A DNA stretch of 64,000 nucleotides from a virus (IMGVR_UViG_3300001525_000272:22184-86183), one strand, 5' to 3'. Numbered from the stretch's first letter, positions 27,458-54,622 are shown. Numbers and translations are program-made. Notes: generated from the sequence alone by a model not told the origin.

Positions 27458-29203
27458 TTACACCTTTTGTTTCTTTTCATTAACCAACCTGTGCAAATTA
27501 TACAATTTGTCGTTCGGAAAATGAATTCTATTTATAATTGAATGAATATCATACTTTTCTGGTTCATGATTAAGATGTTCTGGTTCAAGAATCTTTAAAT
27601 CTGGATCATCAACTTCATAGAAATTTCTGATTTTAGTATCATCCATTCCCACCATTTTAGATCCCCAATAAGAAAGTAAACCTGAACCACAAGCAGGAAC
27701 ACCATTCTTCATACAATTACAAGGAACACCATCAATAACTTTGGCTCTGTCACAACTAATTGCGTGACGATATGCGTGTTCTAAATGAAATTCCTTGATA
27801 AGAGCAAATTGTTCAAACTTCATAAGATCAGAAAGACCATAACATGGTTCAATTCTATTTCCGATGAGAGTTGCATATTTCATAAATTCAAGAAAAGAAC
27901 TAATGAAATACTCTGAATTATCCGGATATGTATTATGGGTTAAAACTTTGTTGAGAAAGAAATTATTGTTTGGTTCAACACTATAATTTAACATCTCAAC
28001 TTTTTCTTCTATACGTTCAATATTTTCAATAATCCATCCATTGTGTACATCCATCATAAAGTTAAGAACTTTATTCTTAACTTCATCAAGATTATCAAGT
28101 TCACTTTCTATAATAGCAAGATGGTCCCAACCAATAGATTTATATTTTCTATCTCTATCTTCGATTTCTTCTAAAGAATGGAAGAATCCAATACCACCGT
28201 AATATTCTACAACTTTCTTTTGAGATATATTGATAAAATCTGGATTCATGTGCTTTCCTTCAGCAGTCATCCAAATTTGTCCATCACCAACATATCTCAA
28301 ATCAAGATTAAGCGATTCAAACAAATCAATTAACTTTCTCTCAGCTTTACTAATCTTTTGATTAAGTTCAGCACTGTGTGGTTTACCTTTAAACCTAATA
28401 CTCGCTAATTCAGCTAAATGTCTTCTTGCATCTTTATCTATATGAGATGTTCTTTGCGCAACACCACATTCTCTATATGTATAACACATATCACCAATAG
28501 CAAGATTCTGTGCTTCAACCCAACCTTTCTTTTTAATATAAAGCGGGTGTTCCTTACTTAAAAATAGCACCTTCTTGCTATGAATAATACCTTCATCAAA
28601 TGTTAATGAAATTTTATAAGTAATATCATGTTCCGGATGATAGATATTAGTAACTATAGCTTTTTCAAATTCTTTTTTCTCAAAATTAAAAGAAAGAACC
28701 TCGTCTCCAACTTTGATATCAAGTGGTTTAACTTGTTTATTATCAAATGTTGTTATAGTGTGATCATCTTTCGGGATAAAACACCCACTTTCTGAAAGAT
28801 TGAGGAAACCACCAAGAAAATATACTTTATCATAATTATACTTGAATACTTGTTCTTCTGCAAAAGCAGCCATAATATTCAAAAATAATCCATTTCTATT
28901 ATGAACCCAAGCACAAGTAGTTTTAATATCATCCGATGTACCAGTTGTTATAGCAGCACTAGGATTAATAAGCATACTCTCACTATCAATATCTTTCATC
29001 AACTTACTAATATCAAATATCTTAAGGGGGATATCAAGTTCCTTACAGATATTAGTAATAGCAATCTTTTCTGCTGCACCAGATCTACAACCATAATCAA
29101 AATGACAAGCTATGATATTTTCATATCCTGCCAATTTTAACATTGCAAGAGTTGTAGTACTATCAAGACCACCACTACAGGAAACTAAACAAAGTTCTTT
29201 CAT
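27458..29203 (-). CDS. queC: QueC-like 7-cyano-7-deazaguanine synthase (PP-loop ATPase), intein-containing
   Basis: SCSGGLDSTT PP-loop, HFDYG, WVHNRNGLFL, ESG|intein|TYPDN, MKFEQ, Cys cluster SC..CNC..CGS. ATG 29203 overlaps the HAD stop (ATGA). Confidence 0.85.
   Translation of the reverse strand: MKELCLVSCSGGLDSTTTLAMLKLAGYENIIACHFDYGCRSGAAEKIAITNICKELDIPLKIFDISKLMKDIDSESMLINPSAAITTGTSDDIKTTCAWVHNRNGLFLNIMAAFAEEQVFKYNYDKVYFLGGFLNLSESGCFIPKDDHTITTFDNKQVKPLDIKVGDEVLSFNFEKKEFEKAIVTNIYHPEHDITYKISLTFDEGIIHSKKVLFLSKEHPLYIKKKGWVEAQNLAIGDMCYTYRECGVAQRTSHIDKDARRHLAELASIRFKGKPHSAELNQKISKAERKLIDLFESLNLDLRYVGDGQIWMTAEGKHMNPDFINISQKKVVEYYGGIGFFHSLEEIEDRDRKYKSIGWDHLAIIESELDNLDEVKNKVLNFMMDVHNGWIIENIERIEEKVEMLNYSVEPNNNFFLNKVLTHNTYPDNSEYFISSFLEFMKYATLIGNRIEPCYGLSDLMKFEQFALIKEFHLEHAYRHAISCDRAKVIDGVPCNCMKNGVPACGSGLLSYWGSKMVGMDDTKIRNFYEVDDPDLKILEPEHLNHEPEKYDIHSIINRIHFPNDKLYNLHRLVNEKKQKV
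27932..28783 (-). mobile_element. intein (284 aa) with internal NUMOD3-like + DUF559/Vsr-like endonuclease
   Basis: Block A CFIPK, IKVGDEVLSF, block B LSKEHPLY..GWVEAQNLAIGD, block F/G NYSVEPNNNFFLNKVLTHN|T. Internal KGKPHSAE, SKAERKL, PDFIN..VVEYYG..FH, RDRKY..IGW. Confidence 0.9.
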
Positions 29204-29694
29204 TCTCCACACTCCATAATTCTATATCTGCACATTACCAGAAAATCAACTATATTGATACAAAGAATCGTGGGATCTGTTTGAGTTATTTTCTCACAGA
29301 GATCACTATTGTTATCAACATAAATGATATTTTTAGAATATTTATTTTTACAATAGTTAATACATTTTATCTTAAAATTCAATTCTTCCTGATTTCCAAC
29401 TTCAGGAACTTTAAGATTTTGAGCCATTACTGGGTATGTTATTGATGCATTATTTCTTCTCAAACAATCTTCAATCAATGGAAAATCTTGAATTGGTCTT
29501 GAAGTAACAATAGTCCATTTAATATTAAATGCTGATGGATTGACTGCCAATTTAAATCCCATAAACTGAACAATGTTTGTAACATTATCGACAAATTTGG
29601 TTTGTTGAACTAATGTTCCGTCAAAATCAAATATAAAGAGAATATTATCAATGTTTTTTCTGACATTATCAGGTACTGATGGATAATCAGACAT
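29200..29694 (-). CDS. HAD-superfamily phosphatase-like protein
   Basis: FIFDFDGTLV (DxDxT), IVTSRP, IYVDNN; overlaps the GATase stop and the QueC start. Confidence 0.7.
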   Translation of the reverse strand: MSDYPSVPDNVRKNIDNILFIFDFDGTLVQQTKFVDNVTNIVQFMGFKLAVNPSAFNIKWTIVTSRPIQDFPLIEDCLRRNNASITYPVMAQNLKVPEVGNQEELNFKIKCINYCKNKYSKNIIYVDNNSDLCEKITQTDPTILCINIVDFLVMCRYRIMECGE

Positions 29695-38578: not shown

Positions 38579-41500
38579 TTAATCTTCGGTTTCAAAAATA
38601 TCACCATCAAGTTCAAAAGGAGATTCTTCCAAACCTTCAATTGAATCAAGAGGTTCATCATCAATTTCCTCAGAAATAGTATTCTCGCCTTCCTGTATCT
38701 GGAAGTTCAATCCGAGGGATGCAAGATTCGTCTGAAGAAGTCTGAGACTCTGTGGAACCTCATCATCATCGATATCATCAAGCATCTCATCATTTGACAT
38801 ACAGTTGGCAATGTACTTATTTCTAAGTGAAATACTATCCGATTTTACAGTAGTGAATTCGTGAAGGTTGATTTCATCACCATGAGCGATTACTGCCCAA
38901 ACTTCCATTTCACCAAGACGTTGACCACCCTTACGAGTTTTACCCCCAAGCGGTTGAGAAGTCTTTGCTGAATACGGACCAATACCTCTTGCTGCCAATT
39001 TATCCTGAGAAATATGATTCAATTTCATAAAGTAAAGAGATCCAAACACAAGTTCGTTCTGAATCATCTTCTTGGAAACTGGATCATAGACAGGAACTTC
39101 ATACTTGCTATTAGTATACTCCATTGCTTGATCAAGCTCAGCAGGACCAATAGATTGGAACGGCGGCTGAATAACATAGAAGTTATCAATAGCTTTCTTC
39201 AAAGTTTCTGTATCATTAATGGGATCGAATATCTCTTTGAGCTGAACCGAATAATTCTTACCGGGTGTCTTATCAATGATATCAACAAAACCATAGATGA
39301 AAGATTTAATCTCATCATTGGATTTCTTGTTTTCAATCATTTCAAGAGCCATCTTTCTAAGATTCAAAACAGCTTGAGACAAATGACATTCATACACCTG
39401 ACCAATGTTCATACGAGAAACGATACCGAGAGGGTTAATCACAATATCGGCTCGTGTTCCATCTTCAGTAACAGGCATAAGTTCATCAGGAACGAATCTT
39501 GAAATTGTCCCCTTGTTACCATGTCTATTTGCTAACTTATCACCAAGCTGTAAGTTTCTTTCATATTTATAAGTAATTTCAATTCTGACACCATCGACAG
39601 AATCACCCTTGATCTTATAATTATTCTTTTCAGACTTATTGACATCCAATGTATTGAGAACAGATTCAACTTGTTCATCAGAAAGATATTCATGGAGACC
39701 AGCTTCTAACTGTTTCCTGTATTCCTTCTGATTATTGACTGCGTCTTTAATGAACTTGTTGTACTGTTCAAAACACTTATTCCAACTATTGGCATAGATC
39801 TTGATGTCGATGATTTCACCATCTTCATCACTATGAACTTCACTAATCGGTTCAAATACCACATCGGTGAATTTTTCAGTATCAACAGCCTTGACCTTTG
39901 CAATGGTCTGACCAGTCTTTACTCTATCACCAATCTTTGGTATTGCTTGATAATTCTCAATATCATCATTCAGATTGAGAAGAACTTTACTCTCCGGAAC
40001 TTCAACCACGACCTGTCCATAATGAACAGATGCAAACACCTTGTTCTTTCTGACACTTTCAGAAATAACAATAGCGTCTTCGTAGTTGTATCCATACCAG
40101 GGTGTGATACAGGTGCGAAGATTTCTTCCCAATGTAATCTTGCCATTATTGAGATAATTCGATTCAGCAAGGATATCACCCTTCTTAAACGAATCACCAA
40201 CATTCACATAAACATGATAGAAATCAAGCACCGAAATATAAAGTTTTCTATAACCAACATGGAAAGTTTTGAACTCTCCGGTTACATACTTGACAATCAA
40301 AAGATCCTGATCTTTATAAATAACAGTACCATCTTCTTCAGCCCACTTCAAGAACGAAGTATATTGAGTATACATTCCTTCAGTTCCAGATTGAACCAAG
40401 GGAAGATCAAATTTCTCAAGCATCACTGCGTGACGTTGCTGAGAAGAACTCATCTGAAGTCGAACAGTATCATCATGTTCACAGAATGGAACCTGTGCAG
40501 TAGAAACAGAGTTAACAGGATCGTTATCTCCATTAGTAGTAGAAAGTGCACCGAATTCATCGAACGAAGCACTTGGAACTACGTACTGGGTTGTTCCGCA
40601 TCCATCACGATCACCAGTATCAGATGGATCAAGCAAATGAAGCATACTCGGATGAATCTCACGAAGATGCAAAGGAACATTTGCTTTCTGGAAACCACCA
40701 GGACCACTCAATGAAGTTCTAGAAAGAAACGCTAATTCAGAAAGAGGATTCAAACTGGTATCATACTGAATGATACTAGAAACATTTGCGTTTGACAGAA
40801 TCACCTTTGAATTATTAGTAAAACGAAACTTTCTATTCTTCTTAATAGATGTAAGAATATTATAGAAGTCTTTACACAGATAACAATAAACTACCTGTTC
40901 GATGAAACGAAGTCTCTTATTCTGATAATCGTCATCATCATAACTTCCATTCTGAAGAACATAGATAAACTCATCAATGACATTGTCAGTATTCATATAA
41001 CGTCTACTGAAAATATCAATTTTGGTAGTGAGTTTAATATTATCGATGATTTGAGCATCACTCATTTTGGCAAAGTCAGATCTCAATACTGCTTGCTTGT
41101 TGATACCGTCATCCTTAAGAATCTTCATTACATCAGAACGAAGTTCATGCATATCATCATTGAGTTCTTCAAAATCAGAACCCGGAATTGCTTCGAATTC
41201 ATCATTCAGATAGAACTTGGTCTTACAACCTTCAACTCCATAAAGAGCAACAACCAATTTGGCAAACGGAAATTTCTTTCCGAAGATGCTTGCCTCATAG
41301 TTATAAACTCTACGAGCTGTATCCTTATGAGTAATCATAAAGGAAGCAATATTAGTACGAATCTTAATGATATTCTTCGTAACAATAGTTGGCTTATCAT
41401 AAAGCTGATATACACAAGCCTTATAATTACCACCAATCAAGAAGTGATTGTTTTCCAACCAAGGAATATCATAATCAAGTTCAATGGGAAAATCTTCATC

Positions 41501-41740
41501 CTTTTCAGGACTGTGATAAACAATTCCTATTTTGAGAACTTTACTAACAGTCTTTCTTATCTCATTTGGATTCTTGTTTTCCTTCTCACAAATATCAATA
41601 TGGGTTACCCTCATATTGTATTCGGGAATGCATTCAAGCATCCTACCAATTATTTCAATAATCTTCGACTCATTCCATTCATATTGACGGAAATTGAAGA
41701 CATTAACTTCAGGTAATGCGTGACTTGGAACTTGTAACAT
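38579..41740 (-). CDS. multisubunit RNA polymerase beta-like subunit
   Basis: DGCG, RLQMSSSQQRHAV, LGRNL, GYNYEDAIVISE, GDKLANRHGNKGTIS, ADIVINPLGIVSRMNIGQ, GGQRLGEMEVWA. Confidence 0.95.
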   Translation of the reverse strand: MLQVPSHALPEVNVFNFRQYEWNESKIIEIIGRMLECIPEYNMRVTHIDICEKENKNPNEIRKTVSKVLKIGIVYHSPEKDEDFPIELDYDIPWLENNHFLIGGNYKACVYQLYDKPTIVTKNIIKIRTNIASFMITHKDTARRVYNYEASIFGKKFPFAKLVVALYGVEGCKTKFYLNDEFEAIPGSDFEELNDDMHELRSDVMKILKDDGINKQAVLRSDFAKMSDAQIIDNIKLTTKIDIFSRRYMNTDNVIDEFIYVLQNGSYDDDDYQNKRLRFIEQVVYCYLCKDFYNILTSIKKNRKFRFTNNSKVILSNANVSSIIQYDTSLNPLSELAFLSRTSLSGPGGFQKANVPLHLREIHPSMLHLLDPSDTGDRDGCGTTQYVVPSASFDEFGALSTTNGDNDPVNSVSTAQVPFCEHDDTVRLQMSSSQQRHAVMLEKFDLPLVQSGTEGMYTQYTSFLKWAEEDGTVIYKDQDLLIVKYVTGEFKTFHVGYRKLYISVLDFYHVYVNVGDSFKKGDILAESNYLNNGKITLGRNLRTCITPWYGYNYEDAIVISESVRKNKVFASVHYGQVVVEVPESKVLLNLNDDIENYQAIPKIGDRVKTGQTIAKVKAVDTEKFTDVVFEPISEVHSDEDGEIIDIKIYANSWNKCFEQYNKFIKDAVNNQKEYRKQLEAGLHEYLSDEQVESVLNTLDVNKSEKNNYKIKGDSVDGVRIEITYKYERNLQLGDKLANRHGNKGTISRFVPDELMPVTEDGTRADIVINPLGIVSRMNIGQVYECHLSQAVLNLRKMALEMIENKKSNDEIKSFIYGFVDIIDKTPGKNYSVQLKEIFDPINDTETLKKAIDNFYVIQPPFQSIGPAELDQAMEYTNSKYEVPVYDPVSKKMIQNELVFGSLYFMKLNHISQDKLAARGIGPYSAKTSQPLGGKTRKGGQRLGEMEVWAVIAHGDEINLHEFTTVKSDSISLRNKYIANCMSNDEMLDDIDDDEVPQSLRLLQTNLASLGLNFQIQEGENTISEEIDDEPLDSIEGLEESPFELDGDIFETED

Positions 41741-41762
41741 TTTTTGTTTTACTCCTAAAAGA

Positions 41763-44660
41763 TTATGCCTTGTTAGTTAACAACTTCTCAAGAATTCCAT
41801 CACTGGACTGAGAATTACCAAGAATACCACTTACAATATAGTTATATGGTTTAGAGAAAGCAAGAGCAAGAAGGAAGGATTCATACGCAGGAACTTTTTC
41901 GATTGAAACCAATGTAGGTTTAATCTCCTTATGTTCCGGATGAAGTCTCCATCTCATTCCACCAATTCTCATCAACTGAGAAACAATAAGTTCAAAGTGA
42001 ACCATCAACAAAGTCTTGTGATGAGAATAGATAGAGAACAGATCTCTGATCACTTGCTTATAATCAGTGTTATATGCATCACCACCATGAAGAATCTTCT
42101 TCACGTGACCAAGGTCGTTAATAATATCCTGCTGAGAGTTATCTTGTTGACCCTTACTCATTTGAGCAACACCACCAACGTGGAATGTTCTCAAAGTGAG
42201 CTGGGTTGCAACCTCGCCCATTGCTTGAGCAGAAATAACACCCAGATATTTGGAATGACAGAACTTAATTGATTCACCATAACATTTTCTGCAAAGTTTA
42301 TGAGACTTACAGAAAAGCGGAGATCTCAACTTAAGATGCTTTCCATAGAAAGTATGATAATTCTCTTCAGTGATCTGCTTGAGAATACCATCATCATCCA
42401 TATACCAACGATAACGAAGAGACTGCATCAACTTGACAGGATCAAGTTTCTGTTTAGCCATCCTCATTTCATCCTGAGCAAGTTTACGCTCATTCTCGTC
42501 TTCAATATTGGCAGTTCTCTCTTGAATGTCAGCTTCACTAAGATTCTCCGGAACATCAATTTCGAAGTACTCAGTGCTACCACAATCATCAAGAATCTCA
42601 CCATTTTCATTAATGGCAGCTTCAACATTGATTCCGCAATAAACAAGCTTTCTAGTAAGATAACCAGAAACAGCAGTATTTAATGCAACGTCAAGAAGAG
42701 CCTTTCTTGCACCATAACAAGATCTAAAGAATTCTTCTTTAGTAAGACCATTAATAAGATTACTCTTAATCGGCTCGTTCACAACCTGACCTTGAGAGTT
42801 AGAAACATATCCACGACAGAAGATCAACTGATTTGCCTGATCCCATGAACCACGAGATCCGGATTCAATGAAGTCTCTGTAAGGGAATGTCTTCATAATC
42901 TGTTTCTTAATTGGATGTTCCGCAAGAGCAAAGAACTTCTCTGCAAGAGTCTTTGTCGGATCATCAACAACTTCAGAAATGATATCTCTAATATTGGCGA
43001 CAGGTCTCAACTCTTTCAAACTGAAAGTACTTCCGATTTCAGTAGTCTTACTGAAACCAAGATTCTTCACAGCATCAAGAGTCTTCTTAATAGTAGCTGG
43101 ATCATAGTTCTTAGCGATAACGTTAAGAATCTTATGAATCATCTTCTTACCAATAATCTTATTCACAAACGGGAAATCATCAGGAAGAACCTTATTGAAT
43201 TCAATTCTACCTTGAGTTGTATTAATAACTTGATTTCCAATCTTATACTCAACAACTGGAGTTTCGGGTTTAGTAAGGAGATACAGACCCAAAACAACAT
43301 CCTGATTGACACTCAAACAAAGATTACCAGTAGAAGGACTGATAAGATTGTTCATGATATACATGTGTTGTCTATTAGACTCTTCCGATTCTGGATACAG
43401 AGAACGATAGCACGCCATCTGATCCCCATCAAAGTCGGCATTGTACGGTTCACACGCAAACGGATGAATCTTAATAGTATAATCAGTATGAACTTTACCC
43501 CTGAACGAAAGAAGACCCATTCTATGAAGAGTCGGCTGACGATTCAAGATAAAGAGCTTATCATTTGCAATCTCTGAAACGATATCAAAGAGACAAGTGT
43601 CATTCGTTTCGTAGCAACGATCAATGAAATTCAAAGCTGGATCATAACGATTAAACGTATGAACAACACCCTGTGAATCAGTGAAAGTTCTAAGTTCACG
43701 AAGTCTCTTTGCAATCTGAAGTTTATAGAATTCAATAGCCATCAGATAGGGAATACCACACTGATCAAGTTCCAACGTAGGATCAGGACCAATGACAGAT
43801 CTTCCAGAAAAGTCAATTCTCTTTCCGAGAATAGAACCTCTTATCAGACCCTGTTTCTTTGAAAATTTACTAAAGACATAATCATACAGTTCAAAGATGT
43901 ACTTCTGAAGATTCTTAAGATTAATTCTATAGATATCAGAATTCTTATCTTGATCCAGGGGATTCTGCTTGTTGATTTGAGCGAAGTTCAAGATGATGAT
44001 ATAATACTCATTGAGTTTATCACGCATCTGAACATCTCTTGATTTAGAAACAGGTCTAAACTCTGGAGGGACAACACCTATACAAGACATCCAGAAAGAG
44101 TCGATATTATCATGGATTTTCTTCCAACCAAGACTATCGTCTTTGAACTTTTCAGCACGATCTTTAATCAACTGAAACATTCCATCAGGACCGCTATAGA
44201 CAGTGACACCATCAGGAATTTCTGTTGCTTCAGTACCATTGACAAGATCTGTCTTTTCAATCTTTGTATAAGTGTCCTTACTTTCATTATAATAGTATCC
44301 ACTTATATTATCATCATACAGCATAGCAAGCATAATGTTAGACATTGTAGTCTTACCAACTCTGTTGATGAGATAGAACATAATCGGATTCACCACCGGA
44401 AATGGCAGTGTAATCTTCGCCATTAATTTACGTCTGACGTTATTGTTATTGACAGTAACACCACATATGTCACATTTGTGACCGACATTATTTCTGCCCC
44501 AATAAGTTCCGCAACCACAATAATAGCTCTTAGTCGGTCCAAATATTCGTTCGCTAAACAATCCATCCGGGTGAAATCCCTTACGGTAATAAATGAGTGG
44601 AGATGTTACTTCAGGGAGATCCTTACAATAATCATCAAGATGAAGCCAATCAATCTTCAT
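41763..44660 (-). CDS. multisubunit RNA polymerase beta'-like subunit
   Basis: Zn ribbon CGCG..CDIC, GKRIDFSGRSVI, LNRQPTLHR, catalytic NADFDGDQM, bridge helix GARKALLD..TAVSGYLTRKL, trigger loop QLTLRTFH. Confidence 0.96.
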   Translation of the reverse strand: MKIDWLHLDDYCKDLPEVTSPLIYYRKGFHPDGLFSERIFGPTKSYYCGCGTYWGRNNVGHKCDICGVTVNNNNVRRKLMAKITLPFPVVNPIMFYLINRVGKTTMSNIMLAMLYDDNISGYYYNESKDTYTKIEKTDLVNGTEATEIPDGVTVYSGPDGMFQLIKDRAEKFKDDSLGWKKIHDNIDSFWMSCIGVVPPEFRPVSKSRDVQMRDKLNEYYIIILNFAQINKQNPLDQDKNSDIYRINLKNLQKYIFELYDYVFSKFSKKQGLIRGSILGKRIDFSGRSVIGPDPTLELDQCGIPYLMAIEFYKLQIAKRLRELRTFTDSQGVVHTFNRYDPALNFIDRCYETNDTCLFDIVSEIANDKLFILNRQPTLHRMGLLSFRGKVHTDYTIKIHPFACEPYNADFDGDQMACYRSLYPESEESNRQHMYIMNNLISPSTGNLCLSVNQDVVLGLYLLTKPETPVVEYKIGNQVINTTQGRIEFNKVLPDDFPFVNKIIGKKMIHKILNVIAKNYDPATIKKTLDAVKNLGFSKTTEIGSTFSLKELRPVANIRDIISEVVDDPTKTLAEKFFALAEHPIKKQIMKTFPYRDFIESGSRGSWDQANQLIFCRGYVSNSQGQVVNEPIKSNLINGLTKEEFFRSCYGARKALLDVALNTAVSGYLTRKLVYCGINVEAAINENGEILDDCGSTEYFEIDVPENLSEADIQERTANIEDENERKLAQDEMRMAKQKLDPVKLMQSLRYRWYMDDDGILKQITEENYHTFYGKHLKLRSPLFCKSHKLCRKCYGESIKFCHSKYLGVISAQAMGEVATQLTLRTFHVGGVAQMSKGQQDNSQQDIINDLGHVKKILHGGDAYNTDYKQVIRDLFSIYSHHKTLLMVHFELIVSQLMRIGGMRWRLHPEHKEIKPTLVSIEKVPAYESFLLALAFSKPYNYIVSGILGNSQSSDGILEKLLTNKA

Positions 44661-45932: not shown

Positions 45933-48548
45933 CTAAAATGGAAATACTCGATCTGGTTCAAAATCTTCTGTCAAAGCGTGGGTCACTAACGTAATACTAC
46001 GATTGTCCTCTGATTGAATTTTCATGCTTTGTGCAAAGAGTTCTCTGCTTTCTGAATCCAAAGCATCAAACACTTCGTCGTAGAAGATATGACTAAATCT
46101 TTTTCCATACAACTTTTCAGCAAGGGATCTTAAAGCAGCCATGCAGCAAAAATCGATAATTCGTTTTTCACCACCTGACAATTTCTTGTGTCCAGTTGCA
46201 CATTTAATATTGTGAACAATGTTGATAGAGAATTTGTCTCTAATTGTACCTGATTTAGTTTCTGACAGTGTGTCAAACGAAACCGTAAATATACCAGGAC
46301 AAACTCGATCTAATTCATCTCTAACACATTGATTCATATGAGGTATTGCTATATCAATTAGCATACTCTTAATACCACTATCAGAAAATGCTGATTTCCA
46401 AAACTCAAGAATTTTTAATGTCTTATCCAATTCACTTTTAGTCGCTTTAAAATCTTTCAACTTATTTTCATCTTCATTGATTGATTTTTCAAGCGAGTGT
46501 AATGTTTCATCAGAGACATGAAATTCTTCTTTGATTTTGTATTCAGACTGTTTTCTATGTAATTCATCTTTAACAGCTTGAACTTCTTGTTCTCGAACCT
46601 TCGATTGTTTTAATTGAGATTCCAATTCTTGAATTGCACAAGAAGTCTTTTTCTGAATATCTAATTTTTCAGATTCTTTTGAACTTATCGAATTATTGAT
46701 ATCTTCACTTTCTTTTTCAATGTTCTTGTTATATTCTTGTGAAGTAGTTATCAATTTATTTTTTGCATTATTAGTATTCAGTTCTATACATTCATTCTTT
46801 GTTTTAATACTGTCTTGTATTTTACTAACATTCTTGGTGTGATTATTCTCAATCACATCAAGTTTAGTTGAATACGTAGAATCTATTTCTTTAAGTTTAG
46901 AGTCTTTATCAGTTTCCAAGTTTTCAAGTTGAGAAGTCTTCTCAGCTCGTTTCTTATCAAACTGTTCTTTCTTTTCTTTATATTGATTGAGTTTTTCTGT
47001 CTTATACTTTTCAAGATCAGAATTACAGTTATTGATTTCGTTTTCTAAATCTTTAATCTTCTTATCAATATCCACTGTATCGTTATTTAATTTGGATATA
47101 TTAGAAGTCTTTTCGTTGATATCCTTTTCCAATGCTTTTTGCTCTTCTTTTAATCTATCAAGATTAATTAAAGGCTGTCCACATTTATCACAAATTGGAG
47201 TATCAGAATTCAGTTGTTTGGAATTCGATTTATATCTATTTTCCAAATCATTTACAGATTGTTTAATATGAGAAATATCTTTAGTGATATTCTCTTTCTT
47301 AATCCTAAATTCAGATTGATTTTTAGTTATCTCTGAAATTTTAGAATTAACATCTTGTTGTTTAGAAAGATAATCTGTTCTGACTTTATCTTTCTCAGAA
47401 AGAATTTCAGTCTCTAAATCTTTAATCTCTTGTTTTAAAACTAAAATCTTCTCATCAAATTCCTTATTCAATAGTAACTTAGAATTATTAGTATCATTTA
47501 CGATATCAGATTTTAATTTCTCATATCTGTGATTCTCATTATTCAAATCTTCTTCTAATTTCTTAATATCATATTTTACAGGTTCATTAACTTCATCAAG
47601 TTCTTCTTTAACCTTCAATTTAAAATCAGAAAACAATTTCTGATATTTCTCTTTTATACCACCAATTTGAAGATTGAGTGAATTGATTTCGTTATCAATA
47701 TTGTTTAACTTGATTTCTGATTTAGATTTGGTTTCATTAATCTTCTTATCAAAATAAGAACTATCACCAAACAAATCTTTATCAGATTCATATTCTTTTA
47801 ATTTCTTATTACAGGATTCTATATCAACTTTAAGTTTCTCAATCTCTTCTTGATTGATCTTCTTAAGATTTTCAATATTCTCTTTTTCATGATTGACCAT
47901 TCCCAATTTCTCAGAAATGTTATTCTCAATCATTTTAATTTGTAATTCACACTGATCAAGTTTCTGTTCATATTCCTTGATCTTTTCTCTGCAATTGTCA
48001 TAATACTTATCATAATCACTCAAATCAAGAATTGAATCAAAGATTGCTTTCTGTTCACTATTGGGTAAAGCAGTAAAGAAATTCTTTGCTTGTTGAGTGA
48101 AATAGTATATGTTATGATAAACTTCCTTTGGAATAATAGTCTTTTCGATTAATCGATAAGTATCCATTTTTCCATTGGCAGATATATCCTGACCATTCTT
48201 AATAAACACTAACTTGTTATTCATCTTAGTATGTTTGTGATAAAGATGAATTTCATATTTATCACAAACATTAGTAATGGTATCGGTTCCTGTAAAGAAC
48301 AGGTGAATCTCAAGATTCTTACCCACTCTTTCATTCACCATATCATCAATACTCAACTTCTCATTTTTGACACCACCATCTTCACCATATAAAGCCATAG
48401 AAACAGCTTTAAGAATAGTCGATTTTCCAGCTCCAACTTTACCGGTAAAAACCGTAACTTTACCAAGTGGAAAATCCATTTCCATACCATCATCACCGTA
48501 ATTTCTTACATTACGAAGTTTAATCTTTTCTACTACAAAGTTTATCAT
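45933..48548 (-). CDS. sbcC: SbcC/Rad50 (T4 gp46-like) SMC ATPase
   Basis: TGKVGAGKST, Q-loop YFTQ, long coiled coils, Zn hook CDKC, LSGGEKR, FYDEVFDALD, LVTH. Confidence 0.93.
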   Translation of the reverse strand: MINFVVEKIKLRNVRNYGDDGMEMDFPLGKVTVFTGKVGAGKSTILKAVSMALYGEDGGVKNEKLSIDDMVNERVGKNLEIHLFFTGTDTITNVCDKYEIHLYHKHTKMNNKLVFIKNGQDISANGKMDTYRLIEKTIIPKEVYHNIYYFTQQAKNFFTALPNSEQKAIFDSILDLSDYDKYYDNCREKIKEYEQKLDQCELQIKMIENNISEKLGMVNHEKENIENLKKINQEEIEKLKVDIESCNKKLKEYESDKDLFGDSSYFDKKINETKSKSEIKLNNIDNEINSLNLQIGGIKEKYQKLFSDFKLKVKEELDEVNEPVKYDIKKLEEDLNNENHRYEKLKSDIVNDTNNSKLLLNKEFDEKILVLKQEIKDLETEILSEKDKVRTDYLSKQQDVNSKISEITKNQSEFRIKKENITKDISHIKQSVNDLENRYKSNSKQLNSDTPICDKCGQPLINLDRLKEEQKALEKDINEKTSNISKLNNDTVDIDKKIKDLENEINNCNSDLEKYKTEKLNQYKEKKEQFDKKRAEKTSQLENLETDKDSKLKEIDSTYSTKLDVIENNHTKNVSKIQDSIKTKNECIELNTNNAKNKLITTSQEYNKNIEKESEDINNSISSKESEKLDIQKKTSCAIQELESQLKQSKVREQEVQAVKDELHRKQSEYKIKEEFHVSDETLHSLEKSINEDENKLKDFKATKSELDKTLKILEFWKSAFSDSGIKSMLIDIAIPHMNQCVRDELDRVCPGIFTVSFDTLSETKSGTIRDKFSINIVHNIKCATGHKKLSGGEKRIIDFCCMAALRSLAEKLYGKRFSHIFYDEVFDALDSESRELFAQSMKIQSEDNRSITLVTHALTEDFEPDRVFPF

Positions 48549-48678
48549 TTTGGATTTTTCCCTTAACGTAATTTTTGAAACCAGAATAACATTCTTTACA
48601 TAATATTATATCATCCAATCTTTTGGATCTGGAACGACTAACTTTAGTATCACAACTTATACATGTTTTCTTATTCAT
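48520..48678 (-). CDS. 52-aa C4 zinc-finger protein (not in the ORF track)
   Basis: MNKKTCISCDTKVSRSRSKRLDDIILCKECYSGFKNYVKGKIQNDKLCSRKD*; ATG overlaps the sbcD stop (ATGA) and the end overlaps the sbcC start. Confidence 0.7.
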   Translation of the reverse strand: MNKKTCISCDTKVSRSRSKRLDDIILCKECYSGFKNYVKGKIQNDKLCSRKD

Positions 48679-49746: not shown

Positions 49747-50490
49747 TTAGATTGTGAATTGTGGAATATCATCATCTTCATCATCAATAATATCATTCCC
49801 AGAGGTGTACTTCGTGAAGTCCATACCCCTGATACTCTTGTTGAAACCAGATAAATGAGGCGGAGCAATTCTAACTTGCTCTTGAAATACCGCTTTACCC
49901 TGACGAAACATATTACGCTGATTATGACACGAAATCATATCAACGTTTACCTCTTTACGAAGTTCATGTTTATTAACTACAATTTGAAGAGTAGTCTGAT
50001 ATCTCATTCCATTCGGAAGAGGAATATTTATAATACCAGTTACAAAATTTCCACCTTCAAACAGAATTGAAAGATCATGATTAGAGTTGATATAATTATC
50101 ATCAACACTACTAAATGATTTAATTCCATTTGGATGTTTATGAAATACTCCGGTATATCCCGGTGTTGCTTCTGATTTAAAATCAACAGTAGCTCCACCA
50201 ACAACTTGTTCCGGAATCATAAAATCATCAACTACAACATTACCCTTATTATCCCAATGCCATTTGACATAACCACCAAACTCATTGGATGTAGCAAATT
50301 TCTTATCAACACAGTATTGAAGATCTCTAACTTTTTCAATAATACTATAATCAATGATACATTTGATCTTCTTTAATGGTTTGGATGTATGATTCACCCA
50401 TTCACCATTATGAGATGTTATATCATCTTCAATTTCATTATCAAATGTTGGAATATCAAGTTCTTCGCAATCATCAATTTGATTGTTCAT
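49747..50490 (-). CDS. JAB/JAMM (MPN+) metallo-isopeptidase
   Basis: Upstream Glu (SNEFGGY) plus exact HxHx7SxxD, HKHPNGIKSFSSVD (50101-50142). Confidence 0.88.
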   Translation of the reverse strand: MNNQIDDCEELDIPTFDNEIEDDITSHNGEWVNHTSKPLKKIKCIIDYSIIEKVRDLQYCVDKKFATSNEFGGYVKWHWDNKGNVVVDDFMIPEQVVGGATVDFKSEATPGYTGVFHKHPNGIKSFSSVDDNYINSNHDLSILFEGGNFVTGIINIPLPNGMRYQTTLQIVVNKHELRKEVNVDMISCHNQRNMFRQGKAVFQEQVRIAPPHLSGFNKSIRGMDFTKYTSGNDIIDDEDDDIPQFTI

Positions 50491-50496
50491 TTACTG

Positions 50497-51303
50497 TTAC
50501 TCCTCTGTTTCTTTTTCTTTCTTTAAGATGTCAAGAATTTCATTGTGATCATAGTTACCAACTTTATTGGAACAACACTGAATGATATTCTGGCATCCAA
50601 AAGTTACACAACAATTTAATCTACCATATTCATCTCTACCATTTTTTGTAGTAAAATTATGTATAAATGGCATATCGTAGTTTTCAATATCATCAATAGT
50701 ATATTTAATTTCATCTGTGATAAAACCAGCACCAAGAGCATCATTTACTGCAATTGCTGCAATAATCTGAGATGATCCAATATAAGATGGAATCACATGA
50801 TAACCACCACCACGCTGAGTCCAAACTTTAGTCAATCTCGGATTACCATCAATTGTCATAGATGTTCCATCATATCCGATCTTATATAACTTACAATTAA
50901 AGTCATAAAGATCATCATAGATATCATCTCTGCAATCCATGATTAAACAATTCTTGTCATAGACGGATTTATCAAATATTGCTTTGTTTGCAACAGTTTC
51001 TAATAATTTTGGACTAGTCAATTCTTTATAAGTTTCAACAACCACATCACTTCTTCTTTCAAGAATTTGATATTTGGCTGCATCAACTTTATGACTATTA
51101 ATGTCACAATATCTGAAAATAGTTCTATTAAGATTTGATTCCTCAATAGTATCAGGATCTATTAAATGCAAACAATCAACTTGTCCGCTTAATGCCAGAT
51201 CCAATGCAACCCAGTTTCCAATACCACCAAGACCAACTATAATAGCATGGTTATAATGAAGTAATTTTAGACTGGATTGCCTTGAATAAAGTTCAGAGTT
51301 CAT
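50497..51303 (-). CDS. E1/ThiF-MoeB family adenylyltransferase
   Basis: LYSRQ, VGLGGIG, IDPDTIEESNLNRTIF, KVDAAK, IMDCRD. Confidence 0.9.
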   Translation of the reverse strand: MNSELYSRQSSLKLLHYNHAIIVGLGGIGNWVALDLALSGQVDCLHLIDPDTIEESNLNRTIFRYCDINSHKVDAAKYQILERRSDVVVETYKELTSPKLLETVANKAIFDKSVYDKNCLIMDCRDDIYDDLYDFNCKLYKIGYDGTSMTIDGNPRLTKVWTQRGGGYHVIPSYIGSSQIIAAIAVNDALGAGFITDEIKYTIDDIENYDMPFIHNFTTKNGRDEYGRLNCCVTFGCQNIIQCCSNKVGNYDHNEILDILKKEKETEE

Positions 51304-51481
51304 CTTCTTGATTCTCCGAAGTAATTGTTTGGTTTGTATTTTTCTTTTTCTTTACTCTACATTTACATGATTTAATAGACTCTCCTGTACTTATATTCAT
51401 AAAATCTATCTGTTTAATATTTCTATTTTCATCTATTTTAGTAACAACTACATCAACTTCGTATGAAGATGTGTCAATCAT
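51293..51481 (-). CDS. 62-aa hypothetical protein within the conjugation operon
   Basis: Overlaps both the E2-like stop and the E1 start. Confidence 0.55.
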   Translation of the reverse strand: MIDTSSYEVDVVVTKIDENRNIKQIDFMNISTGESIKSCKCRVKKKKNTNQTITSENQEDEL

Positions 51482-52979
51482 TGATTATCTCCACATGAGT
51501 TTCAGTGTCTTCATCTGGATCAATATTTTTAGCAGTTGAATCTTCTTCATCTTCAAATGAAACATCCGTTAACTTTTCATTATCACCAATATATTCCTCA
51601 TCAATTTCAAAATTACTAGAAACATCTATTGTAGAATGTGCAAGAACTTCTTCAAGATTGGATGAATCATATGCACTATCAAAATTAATAAGATTGAGTA
51701 ATGCTTCGCAACGATTGAGATTTTCCCCCAATTTCCTAACATCAGTCAATGAAATCTTTCCAGAAATATCACCCATACAAACATTACCGTTATTTGTATT
51801 TGGATGATATCCTTCACAATACATTTTACCATCTGTAGTTATAAATATCTTATCAATATGATAGGGATTCTCTTTCCAATTCGGATCGATATTCCGTATT
51901 TTTCCTTTGTAATTAACTTTCATCGGAATAATATGGACTTCTTTTTCCCAAGCAATCCAACCATCAAACTTTTGATCAGATACAATCCAACCAGACATTT
52001 CGAATTTATTACCATACATCAAACCATTACTAAACGCTGTATCAATATCCTTTTGTAATGATTGATATTTTTTGGCCAGATAAGAATCTAACAATTGTTT
52101 ATATGAATATTGATTATTGATTCCCCATCTGGTATCTTCTATATATCTTTTAATTTGTGTATTTATCAATTCTTTAATTTTACTAAGAAGAACACTAACT
52201 TCATCGCAATCATTAAACAAATCGATATGCTGCGGTTCAATAATAGTACATTCCTGGGAAAGATTATTTAATCTAGCTACAAGAAACTTTCCAATTCTTT
52301 CTGTAAGTTCCCCATCTACCCCCATTATATTACTTCTGAAAAACAAACTGTTTGCATTTGCAAAGACAGAAATCAATCTGATTACTATCTCTTTGAATCT
52401 ATCATAACTAACAGTTCTTCTCAATTTTTCAAGAATTACTTGATCGAGATAAAGTATACCATACCTATCAATAAATCCAATTAAGAAATTCTTTTCACCA
52501 ATGAAAAGAAGTTTATAAATATAAATATTAAGTTTGTCTAAACTAGCATGGATTCTATTAGTCTCTACATAATATGAATCATAGATATTATTTGCATTAT
52601 AATGATATCCTTCGATTTTTAAATCAAAATCAATATTGGCTCCAATATAGAAAAATCCTCTGCCATTTTCTCTATATTTATTATTAAACATAGTAAGAAA
52701 ATCTTGATTGGGATTCTCATTATAATTATTACGTCTCCATTCATAGTGCCAAGATATATATCTTGCTATAAAAGTCTTATTAAGTCTAACCAATCTAATC
52801 CATGAAGAATTATCTAAAAATTTGATTCCAGTAGAATTCTCTTGTGGTATGTATCCGTTTTTGGCTTGAAAACTACCACAAGAAACAGAATTCTTCAAAT
52901 AAGCAATATCATTCTTGTTTGAAACAATATCATATATGATTTCAACCAATGACATTTCTTTTTGATTTTCGGTTTGCAT
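51474..52979 (-). CDS. large protein with C-terminal E2/UBC-like domain
   Basis: YCEGYHPNTNNGNVCMG (51777-51806 is HPN-x6-C, UBC-like), followed by a helix with LLNLINFDSAY; directly upstream of E1 and JAB. Confidence 0.65.
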   Translation of the reverse strand: MQTENQKEMSLVEIIYDIVSNKNDIAYLKNSVSCGSFQAKNGYIPQENSTGIKFLDNSSWIRLVRLNKTFIARYISWHYEWRRNNYNENPNQDFLTMFNNKYRENGRGFFYIGANIDFDLKIEGYHYNANNIYDSYYVETNRIHASLDKLNIYIYKLLFIGEKNFLIGFIDRYGILYLDQVILEKLRRTVSYDRFKEIVIRLISVFANANSLFFRSNIMGVDGELTERIGKFLVARLNNLSQECTIIEPQHIDLFNDCDEVSVLLSKIKELINTQIKRYIEDTRWGINNQYSYKQLLDSYLAKKYQSLQKDIDTAFSNGLMYGNKFEMSGWIVSDQKFDGWIAWEKEVHIIPMKVNYKGKIRNIDPNWKENPYHIDKIFITTDGKMYCEGYHPNTNNGNVCMGDISGKISLTDVRKLGENLNRCEALLNLINFDSAYDSSNLEEVLAHSTIDVSSNFEIDEEYIGDNEKLTDVSFEDEEDSTAKNIDPDEDTETHVEIIND

Positions 52980-53010
52980 TGTCTTTTAATGCTGTAGTTA
53001 ACTGGGTGTA

Positions 53011-53051
53011 AAAGGTTGCTCCTATGACTTTAAATCATAGGAGCAACCTTT
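53011..53051 (-). terminator. intrinsic terminator between the Ubl and E2-like genes
   Basis: Perfect 17-bp stem aaaggttgctcctatga/tcataggagcaaccttt with a 7-nt loop. Confidence 0.8.
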
Positions 53052-53070
53052 GTTGTATGGTGCTTAAAAA

Positions 53071-53739
53071 TTAGGCACCCTTGTCAATCTTCTCAATCTT
53101 CATAGAAACAACATCAGACATCTTAATATCATTCACGCCATTGATCTGACCGACCTTCGCTTGAGTGATGGTAGTAGCGGTCATGTTATTCTCTTTGGCG
53201 AACGTATGACAAGCCATGATGAGTCGCGCAGGAGTATCAACGATATATTTGGGTTGATCATTGATGATAACCAAAGTCATACCCTGTTTGACAAACACAG
53301 TTTTCTTCTTACCATTGCTGCCAACAATAGGAAGAATCACACGTGCACCAACCTGACCAGACTTGTTGGTATAAGGCTTGATAACCTTATAATCCTCAAG
53401 CTCTTGATAAACATCTTCATCAATAGCAACATCAGTCATTCTTCCGGACTCGGGAATGACCTTGCATTCGCCAGCCTGTGTGTTATCAACAACCTCATCA
53501 GAAGTGTTGGTTGCGGCAACAGGAACATTCTTAGTTTTCTTGGCTTTCTTTGCAATCACAGTATAAACCGGGAATCTGCCAGAAGCATCGCAAGCAACAG
53601 TATCATTATCAACAAACTCATTAATAATATCCTGAATCTGAGAACCCTTGCTCAAACCCAGCTTCTTTGCTATTGCAGTAGCAGACTGCGGAAAAGAAGT
53701 AATAGCAGCAAGAACTTTATCAGGGGTAATGTTAGCCAT
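53071..53739 (-). CDS. winged-HTH + putative ubiquitin-like (beta-grasp) domain protein
   Basis: N-terminal KVLAAI..SATAIAKKLGL..IQDIINEF wHTH; C-terminal beta-beta-alpha-beta pattern ending IKMSDVVSMKIEKIDKGA*; AAAAGGA RBS before ATG 53739. Confidence 0.6.
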   Translation of the reverse strand: MANITPDKVLAAITSFPQSATAIAKKLGLSKGSQIQDIINEFVDNDTVACDASGRFPVYTVIAKKAKKTKNVPVAATNTSDEVVDNTQAGECKVIPESGRMTDVAIDEDVYQELEDYKVIKPYTNKSGQVGARVILPIVGSNGKKKTVFVKQGMTLVIINDQPKYIVDTPARLIMACHTFAKENNMTATTITQAKVGQINGVNDIKMSDVVSMKIEKIDKGA

Positions 53740-53764: not shown

Positions 53765-54622
53765 TTAACTAACCTTATTTTCAATTCTTAAACAATTAAC
53801 AGAATTTTGATTAATATTGTACTTATCAGCAGCAGTACGACCTCTGTTAAACGAAGAAAGATCAATTCTTTTTGATTCTTTGAGTTTTTCAGATTGAGCC
53901 TCTTGTTGCTTAATGAATAACTTTATTTTATCTCTTACGTATTTCTTGTATCTATTTAATTGAACCAACTCGTTTGTCTTTAAAATCAAATCAAACGATT
54001 CTGGTTGATTATCAAATTCTTCATCATCTTCAAGATCATCTATATCTTGAAATCCACTATCTGCTTGTTCATGTTTTTTAATCTTCTGATATTCTTGTTT
54101 TTCTTCTATAACAGCTCTTTCTAATAATCTTCCAGTAAATCCTTCTACAAAAGATCTCCAATTGGTAAAATTACCATTTACAGATCTTTGATGTTTGTAT
54201 CCAAGTTTGGATGCTGTACTCTTGAAAAACTTATACATATCAACACATCTGGAGATATCTTGTGCTTCTCCTATGAAATTGATATATAATTGCTTTGCTG
54301 AACGATTTGTTTTGTACTTTCTCAAAATACATTCTGTATTGCATACAATATTAATCAATTGGATTAGATTTTGTATCCATACAGGAAGATCATTTGCTAT
54401 GAACTTTTCACATTCTTTTTCTATTATGAAAATTTCATTATCAGAGATTGCATTCTCTGTAAGTACAGTTGACATATCAAGATGATGTTTCCTCATCAAA
54501 TTAAAAGCCAACTTTAAAGCAACTTCAGCTTCAGCCTCAGATTGAATCTTTTTACAACCATCATGTTTAATTAAAAGTTTCTTAATACGATCTACTATTT
54601 TCTTATCTGTTTTTTCAGACAT
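53765..54622 (-). CDS. DUF2786-like protein
   Basis: KIVDRIKKLL..EAEAEVALKLAFNLMRKH, FIGEAQD, SFVEGF, SFNRG. Confidence 0.7.
   Translation of the reverse strand: MSEKTDKKIVDRIKKLLIKHDGCKKIQSEAEAEVALKLAFNLMRKHHLDMSTVLTENAISDNEIFIIEKECEKFIANDLPVWIQNLIQLINIVCNTECILRKYKTNRSAKQLYINFIGEAQDISRCVDMYKFFKSTASKLGYKHQRSVNGNFTNWRSFVEGFTGRLLERAVIEEKQEYQKIKKHEQADSGFQDIDDLEDDEEFDNQPESFDLILKTNELVQLNRYKKYVRDKIKLFIKQQEAQSEKLKESKRIDLSSFNRGRTAADKYNINQNSVNCLRIENKVS

Follow-up and report, generated by a model that had tools for sequence, protein, structure and literature searches.

The described systems closest to the locus reported here are Bil, Bub and type II CBASS. The locus is a gene cassette at positions 49747-53739 of a 64,000-nucleotide stretch of viral DNA (IMGVR_UViG_3300001525_000272:22184-86183), which is referred to over its full length as the window. 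Bil (BilABCD; operon type 6d of Iyer et al. 2006) consists of four separate genes encoding a ubiquitin-like protein (Ubl), an E2, a JAB peptidase and an E1, and its Ubl may carry additional N-terminal parts. BilA of E. aridi ends with Gly97-Ala98, a small residue followed by an extra one, and is inert until the JAB peptidase BilC removes Ala98; with Gly97 exposed, the protein is conjugated (PMC10557695). No E3 takes part, and the E2 is thought to select the targets (PMC10557695, PMC11601596). The active site of the Bil E2 is a cysteine with a downstream histidine (CEHH motif), while the Bil E1 is built from an inactive and an active adenylation domain, a mobile cysteine domain and a zinc site (PMC10557695). 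In Bub (types I and II; operon type 6E/DUF6527), the E1 is a minimal, homodimer-type enzyme without the catalytic cysteine; one invariant loop tyrosine is used instead as an oxyester intermediate (Corbett laboratory, PMC11601596). The Bub Ubls have diverse N-terminal domains, the E2 uses serine and histidine and no cysteine, JAB and E1 or E2 and E1 are fused, and a DUF6527 serine protease, BubE, is added (PMC11601596). Type II CBASS applies E1, E2 and JAB chemistry to a C-terminus ending in a small residue. Of its Cap2/Cap3 pair, Cap2 is an E2-E1 fusion that acts on a CD-NTase, and no Ubl is present.

The cassette in the window is likely to be a self-contained, phage-encoded ubiquitin-like conjugation system with a modifier (termed tag in the following), E1, E2 and JAB of its own. 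This had been proposed in a preliminary description of the window, made from the sequence alone, and is supported here by the family assignments of E1, E2 and JAB and by the linkage of the four genes in 13 of 13 loci. Five consecutive open reading frames (ORFs) on the minus strand were predicted before and are confirmed; together with a stem-loop they make up the following features:

53071-53739, minus strand: candidate modifier (tag), 222 amino acids (aa); ATG start, winged helix and beta-rich C-terminal domain
53012-53050, minus strand: stem-loop in the spacer from tag gene to E2 gene; perfect 16-bp stem, then UUUUAC
51474-52979, minus strand: E2, 501 aa; HPN-Cys motif, family profile, AlphaFold model
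51293-51481, minus strand: small ORF, 62 aa; overlaps both neighbours, basic C-terminal half
50497-51303, minus strand: E1 (ThiF-type, single domain), 268 aa; Pfam ThiF
49747-50490, minus strand: JAMM/MPN+ metallopeptidase, 247 aa; JAMM motif, extra N- and C-terminal tails

With Bil, the cassette has in common the four separate genes, the N-terminal extension of the tag, the small C-terminal residue followed by an extra one, and the missing E3, for which no gene was recognisable in the cassette. It differs from Bil in the E2, which has an invariant HPN motif and cysteine, in the E1, a single domain of 268 aa without such a cysteine, and in its occurrence in phage genomes, Bil being bacterial and antiviral. 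The minimal E1 without a crossover cysteine but with an invariant tyrosine (at a crossover position assigned here by inference) resembles that of Bub, as does the combination of the candidate Ubl with an additional N-terminal domain; moreover, the best fold match of the tag, a weak one, is Ubl3 of a Type II Bub operon (9cd2). Unlike in Bub, the catalytic cysteine of the E2 (Cys401) is invariant and all genes are separate. A DUF6527 protein was not detected by Pfam among the five cassette proteins and their two nearest neighbours, and ThiF and UBA5 are at least as similar to the E1 in sequence as BubCD is (5e-8). Type II CBASS provides the best PADLOC matches of the E1, PADLOC models being matched in the cassette only by the E1 and, weakly, by the JAB. 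In contrast to Cap2, however, E2 and E1 are separate proteins here, and the tag has a gene of its own. Membership in Bil, Bub or type II CBASS was rejected on the basis of the E2 site, the E1 architecture and the gene fusions. Because of these mixed likenesses, the cassette is considered to work like the three systems without being a member of any of them. A ubiquitin-like domain beside a JAB peptidase is also found in phages in the tail-assembly proteins TAPI and TAPK of lambda and T1 (PMC1779556), a pair that lies in the tail module and lacks E1 and E2, whereas the cassette is located among replication and recombination genes. Sulfur-carrier systems have a ThiS/MoaD carrier, an E1 often equipped with a rhodanese domain and no E2. 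In contrast, the cassette has an E2, and in line with the earlier statement that ThiS/MoaD genes are lacking nearby, no ThiS match was obtained at an E value of 10 in the whole 86-kb contig.

The association of the genes was followed in loci gathered by looking up exact proteins, by scanning with peptide patterns and by two scans of IMG/VR with DNA patterns. The ORFs of these loci were scored with hidden Markov models (HMMs) built from our own alignments. Each of the 13 distinct loci with enough flanking sequence combines E2 and E1, accompanied by JAB and the tag gene wherever the contig extends far enough, so that the co-conservation of the four genes in relatives, raised in the preliminary description, is borne out. 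Six of these loci (L017, L018, L019, L021, L022 and L023, on contigs of 30-194 kb) had not been used for HMM building. The loci originate from gut and environmental metagenomes. L021 has the order tag-E1-E2-JAB, and L022 likewise has E1 ahead of E2, which shows that the genes stay together even where they have been rearranged. E2 identity drops to approximately 24-29% in L006, the most distant full-length relative aligned, and is lower for remoter members. The gene downstream of the cassette encodes SbcD in the window clade and in L006, and Gat-QueC in L011 and L015. With narrow peptide patterns, no relative was detected in one genome each of 185,579 prokaryotic species, and a metagenome scan with such patterns returned only the 321-kb contig of a relative already known to carry the cassette.

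The assignment of the E2 is based on its motif, on profile comparisons and on a structural model. The HPNTNNGNVC motif noted before is present at residues 392-401 of the 501-aa protein (HPN at 51798-51806, Cys401 at 51777-51779), within a ubiquitin-conjugating (UBC)-type domain that covers residues ~312-452 (51624-52046). H392, P393, N394 and C401 are invariant in 19 aligned homologues, and V400, G403, D404 and a later 'N..S.Y' turn are further invariant features of the family. Seventeen homologues share 36-95% identity; the family has 129 cluster representatives in a library of 1.84 billion proteins, including short forms of 135-180 aa, which match only residues ~317-456. A wider profile (A8), composed of diverged members and the C-terminal part of the window protein, matched UBE2C among the PDB sequences with an E value of 3.3e-4; ubiquitin-conjugating enzymes make up 57 of the 60 matches listed, from a total of 161. 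In this alignment, the family pattern HPNV...G.VC is placed on the HPN and the catalytic cysteine of UBE2C, and the next helix and turn on 'LLGEPNIDSPL'. The close-family profile (A1) had no match in the PDB sequences; only A8 reached E2 enzymes. The likeness to the classical eukaryotic and archaeal UBC enzymes (PF00179, UQ_con) thus comprises the HPN motif, the spacing to the catalytic cysteine, the next helix and the 'LL..xN.DS' turn. Unlike in these enzymes, the UBC domain is located C-terminally in a 501-aa protein, after a large additional region, and the similarity stays below the Pfam cut-off. Three of ten distant members gave weak matches to the same part of UQ_con (18.9-19.4 bits, cut-off 27), while the window protein had none at E values of 0.1 or 10 and every member tested was below the cut-off. 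The UQ_con model had no match in the contig, and a PHROGs match was not found for the E2 either.

The AlphaFold model of the E2 has a mean predicted local distance difference test (pLDDT) value of 62, with about 80-86 over residues 330-450. Foldseek gave no significant match for the whole model, E2 enzymes being recurrent among the weak rows, and a VIA-wide structure search was filled by a helical hairpin. When residues 312-452 were re-aligned in VIA with complete UBC cores (UbcH8, UbcH7, E2S and Ube2d2), Z scores of 4.0-5.1 were obtained, with root-mean-square deviations (rmsd) of ~4 Å over 105-115 residues and up to 20% identity; the highest value refers to residues 2-137 of UbcH8 (Z 5.1, rmsd 4.0, 108 residues). 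The ESM Atlas yielded weak leads only, namely Prok-E2_D in 11% of one cluster and a UEV cluster. The C-terminal 140 residues are thus regarded as a classical UBC domain of the HPN-Cys type, with fold evidence of middling strength; the UBC fold expected for this gene is thereby supported, both by the UBE2C match with HPN and cysteine aligned and by the fit of the model to whole UBC cores. In the N-terminal ~300 residues (52080-52979), no fold was recognisable. A shorter subfamily of the E2 (about 350-370 aa, P0131-P0155) differs in its N-terminal region, where an HP[ND]D.[ND]F...CDG[FW]..FL motif is conserved. Since the N-terminal regions differ among family members, as would be expected of a target-recognition module, such a role is putatively assigned to this part of the protein.

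The E1 is a ThiF-type enzyme, as described before, with a match to Pfam ThiF (PF00899) at 3.9e-19 and 69.2 bits (cut-off 28.1), and it contains the GLGGIG and DPDTIEESNLNR sequences quoted for it. The best PADLOC matches are the CBASS E1-E2 models (2e-12). In nine diverged homologues (down to ~30% identity), GxGGxG (G24/G26/G27/G29), D51, NLNRT (N57-L-N-R60), K72 and DCRD (D123) are invariant. From the last core strand (DGNP) to the PS motif, all nine are free of cysteine, and after this strand the only invariant residues are P155, Y168, P172 and S173. Tyr168 is encoded at 50800-50802; judged by its position only, the segment around it may correspond to the crossover loop. In searches of the PDB, PaaA, MccB, TcdA, ThiF, UBA1 and UBA5 scored above BubCD and Cap2 (1.5e-8); these matches cover only the nucleotide-binding half, which is common to all of them.

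For the JAB peptidase, the exact JAMM motif that had been noted is present (E70...H117-K-H119-x7-S127-x2-D130), and its residues E70, H117, H119, S127 and D130 are invariant across the homologues. Ten of 11 homologues have HxHx7SxxD, the remaining one an x8 variant. The window protein reached Prok-JAB (PF14464) with 0.0061 and 16.9 bits, below the cut-off of 25, and five of six diverged homologues match this family. The JAB profile had no match in the PDB. For the cassette as a whole, the motif residues stay invariant among homologues down to about 25-35% identity, which is more than would be expected by chance.

The candidate tag starts with the ATG at 53739, as in its relatives, rather than with the TTG at 53784. 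Its AlphaFold model (mean pLDDT 67) has three parts: a winged helix (residues 1-61, about 53554-53739), a disordered linker (residues 64-90) and a beta-rich, Ubl-like C-terminal domain (about 53074-53322). The winged helix matches many winged helix-turn-helix (wHTH) structures with Z scores of 8.4-8.7 and, weakly, the Pfam families HTH_45, TrmB and MarR. Zalpha/Zbeta domains, which bind Z-DNA or Z-RNA, are among the top structural matches of the winged helix (Z 8.2-8.7); they are tied with ordinary wHTH regulators, so that no specific claim is made. In BFVD, a viral fold library, poxvirus E3-like two-domain proteins are on top, probably through the winged helix alone. In the C-terminal domain, the model places strands at 145-151, 155-159 and 162-167, a helix at 170-183 and strands at 189-195 and 210-217, an order compatible with a beta-grasp. 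The best Foldseek match in the whole PDB is 9cd2_A, the three-beta-grasp Ubl (Ubl3) of an E. coli Type II Bub operon (PMC11601603), with a weak E value of 0.038 and a probability of 0.92. This match of a predicted model is suggestive of a Ubl or beta-grasp fold, not significant. The beta-grasp segment claimed for this gene in the preliminary description is therefore retained in weakened form only; the conserved, apparently trimmed Gly/Ala tail fits a Ubl as well.

Other searches with the tag were negative. Direct scans of Pfam, NCBIfam, PADLOC and PHROGs gave no match for the window protein, and a Pfam scan of all family members added winged-helix matches only. No Ubl was found with the C-terminal domain profile in the PDB, no short stand-alone homologue in a search for such proteins, nothing in an ESM Atlas structure search and no match to the Multi_ubiq model in the contig.

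The tail is a stronger argument for a Ubl-type tag than the fold match. The window protein ends with KIDKGA, as quoted earlier, and 18 family members end with IDKGA, three of them with extra residues (KGA-AE twice, KGA-M). More distant homologues with wHTH and C-terminal domain end with NKAA (four loci, two with identical products) or NKAGQ. Four distant cassettes have a protein of 72-103 aa without winged helix at the tag position, ending with NEAK, NEAA or YEAK; the head might therefore be optional and the tail domain the constant part. Taken together, the C-termini observed (KGA, KAA, KAGQ, KGAAE, KGAM, EAK and EAA) follow one rule in 13 loci and 18 family members: one invariant small residue (Gly or Ala) is followed by one to three variable residues. 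By analogy with BilA, such a tail would be trimmed by the JAB peptidase, which would explain the JAB gene in every cassette.

The spacing of the genes is as claimed before: the E2 gene and the 62-aa ORF overlap by 8 nt, the 62-aa ORF and the E1 gene by 11 nt, and 6 nt separate the E1 gene from the JAB gene. Overlaps between stops and starts point to translational coupling. Counterparts of the 62-aa ORF are found at the same position in L001, L003 and L004 (55-59 aa) and in L006 (107 aa) and in none of the more distant cassettes examined; the ORF is specific to the lineage of the window. It had no match in direct Pfam, NCBIfam, PADLOC and PHROGs scans. The tag gene is separated from the E2 gene by a 91-nt spacer with a strong hairpin, consisting of a perfect 16-bp stem and a 7-nt loop followed by UUUUAC (-30.5 kcal/mol, z -8.2). 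Equally strong hairpins of 13-19 bp and unrelated sequence are present in five of six other loci (L001, L004, L014, L015 and L016) and were not found in L006, so that six of seven loci in total have a hairpin after the tag gene; U runs follow most of them. Because the structure is kept at one position without its sequence, the hairpin is probably a partial terminator or a 3' stabiliser, and production of the tag therefore probably exceeds that of the enzymes. The gene of a DUF2786/DUF7168 protein (phrog_421; 53765-54622, minus strand) directly precedes the tag gene in the window, L001, L004 and L006 and does not do so in more distant cassettes.

The following cycle is proposed. The 222-aa product, with its winged-helix head, flexible linker and Ubl-like C-terminal domain, would be the modifier. 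The JAMM peptidase would remove whatever follows the invariant Gly/Ala (in the window protein, the last Ala of KGA), in parallel to BilC acting on BilA, and the minimal ThiF-type E1 would adenylate the exposed C-terminus. Because the E1 lacks the cysteine, the acyl group might be transferred either via an oxyester at the invariant Tyr168, as in the Bub E1s, or directly from the adenylate to Cys401 of the E2. The E2 would pass the tag on to lysines of targets chosen by its own ~300-aa N-terminal region, and the JAMM peptidase might also reverse the conjugation. The best guess for the purpose is that proteins of the phage or of its gut host are modified in the course of infection.

What is new is the combination of a classical E2, a minimal E1 without cysteine and a winged-helix tag with an apparently trimmed Gly/Ala tail in the core genome of a large-phage lineage. 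A complete conserved cassette at such a place would put a bacterial antiviral chemistry on the side of the virus, and it could be a means to rewire host or phage proteins. It raises the questions of how transfer from E1 to E2 proceeds without an E1 thioester and how the classical E2 enzymes are related to prokaryotic and viral ones. A more specific version is offered tentatively and is rather doubtful as a whole: a hybrid cascade of a huge-phage lineage without parallel elsewhere, in which the E1 without cysteine delivers via a tyrosine oxyester or the adenylate to an HPN-Cys E2, the nucleic-acid-binding winged helix of the tag tethers targets to DNA or RNA during infection, and phages are an overlooked reservoir of eukaryote-type E2 enzymes. 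As part of this version, the sequence of the E2 would resemble eukaryotic UBC enzymes more than it does the bacterial E2 enzymes of solved structure.

Several observations weigh against a ubiquitin-like conjugation cassette. The beta-grasp is not established for the tag at a Foldseek E value of 0.038, the VIA lists being filled entirely by winged-helix matches, and neither Pfam nor PDB sequence searches gave a Ubl or beta-grasp match. Between the separate HMMs of the fused tags and the short 72-103-aa tags, only 4-8 bits were obtained, which is not significant; homology of the two is therefore not claimed. In the E1, the catalytic cysteine shared by all classical E1 enzymes is missing, which requires a correction to the standard cascade, and the solved sequences closest to this protein are those of the peptide-modifying enzymes PaaA (1.3e-17) and MccB (7e-17). 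The E2 has no direct Pfam, NCBIfam or PADLOC match, and its structural Z scores are middling. Furthermore, a single phage lineage comprises all close relatives, and their synteny is in part a matter of common descent.

Some of these points would fit priming as performed by Cap2/Cap3 in type II CBASS. The 222-aa protein would then be a wHTH regulator or effector, the C-terminus of which is joined by E1 and E2 to one partner, switching it on, and released by the JAB peptidase, switching it off. The winged helix is bona fide and the beta-grasp assignment weak; the C-terminus that type II CBASS activates is that of an enzyme and has a small residue at its end, and the E1 matches the CBASS E1-E2 models of PADLOC at 2e-12. 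Nevertheless, this explanation is unlikely, as the winged helix is missing from the protein at the same position in four distant cassettes, E2 and E1 are separate genes without a Cap2-type fusion, and no CD-NTase or effector was recognisable beside the cassette in scans that covered part of the window.

The same conjugation chemistry might instead serve defence, with proteins of competing phages being tagged in superinfection exclusion, as Bil does for bacteria, rather than the regulation of the phage's own infection or a counter-measure against host immunity. All characterised bacterial relatives are antiviral (Bil, and probably Bub and type II CBASS; PMC11601596, PMC10557695). The cassette, however, lies among core replication, recombination and transcription genes, it keeps a fixed position across diverged relatives instead of occupying a variable island, and the patterns used did not reveal it in the 185,579 species genomes; a defensive purpose is thus judged quite improbable. 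A sulfur-carrier pathway has very little probability. It would involve an E1 that adenylates and thiocarboxylates a ThiS/MoaD-like carrier after exposure of its C-terminus by the JAB peptidase, the sulfur being destined for a cofactor or for nucleic-acid modification, perhaps in connection with the 7-deazaguanine genes of the phage. E1, JAB and a small carrier with a trimmed tail are a known sulfur-transfer pattern (PMC1779556), ThiF/MoeB-type enzymes also lack the catalytic cysteine, and Gat-QueC directly follows the cassette in L011 and L015. Yet every cassette includes a UBC-type E2 with invariant HPN and cysteine, which has no role in sulfur transfer, no ThiS match was found in the contig and no rhodanese or other extra domain on the E1, and in the window clade the next gene is sbcD instead of the Gat-QueC gene. 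The least probable explanation is peptide chemistry of the MccB/PaaA type, in which the E1 modifies the C-terminus of a small peptide such as the product of the 62-aa ORF and the JAB is a processing protease: PaaA and MccB are the closest solved sequences and the E1 gene is immediately preceded by a small conserved ORF, but the matches are restricted to the common nucleotide-binding half with ThiF, UBA1 and UBA5 close behind, the 62-aa ORF is absent from distant cassettes that keep tag, E2, E1 and JAB, and the E2 is left unexplained.

The source of the proposed ubiquitin-like conjugation cassette is a large uncultured gut phage. The IMG/VR record is a linear sequence of 86,183 bp with a G+C content of ~31% and a CheckV completeness of 27%, which implies a full genome of roughly 320 kb; a contig of a relative with the same cassette is 321,650 bp long. 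The term jumbo phage, used in the preliminary description, would be appropriate at this implied size and that of the relative, the record itself being an 86-kb fragment. No similar sequence was detected among 50,697 GenBank phage records in a DNA search and in a protein search with the E2. Full-text searches, in which subscription journals were largely outside reach and absence is thus unproven, gave no account of a phage-encoded set of E1, E2, JAB and Ubl, and neither a comparative survey of jumbo phages from 2021 nor a review from 2026 mentions such a system.

Genes on the contig encode the large terminase, a tail sheath protein, a baseplate wedge protein, both large subunits of a multisubunit RNA polymerase, a helicase and SbcCD. 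A functional tie of the cassette to SbcCD was rejected, as the two are linked only in the closer clade and Gat-QueC takes this place in L011 and L015. Gat-QueC (7-deazaguanine pathway) is encoded there directly after the cassette (L015:4885-7881 and L011:3715-5421); the L015 protein has 998 aa with faint Hint and NUMOD3 matches and may hold an intein. The window has a Gat-QueC gene of its own at 27458-29212, ~20 kb away from the cassette. The large RNA polymerase subunits (38579-44660, minus strand) are each encoded by one unsplit gene (965 and 1053 aa, beta' upstream of beta), in contrast to the split subunits of phiKZ-type phages. Between sbcD and sbcC, and overlapping both, a 52-aa ORF with two CxxC pairs (zinc-ribbon-like) is located at 48520-48678 on the minus strand, and a 57-aa ORF is found at the equivalent position in L004 (11270-11443).

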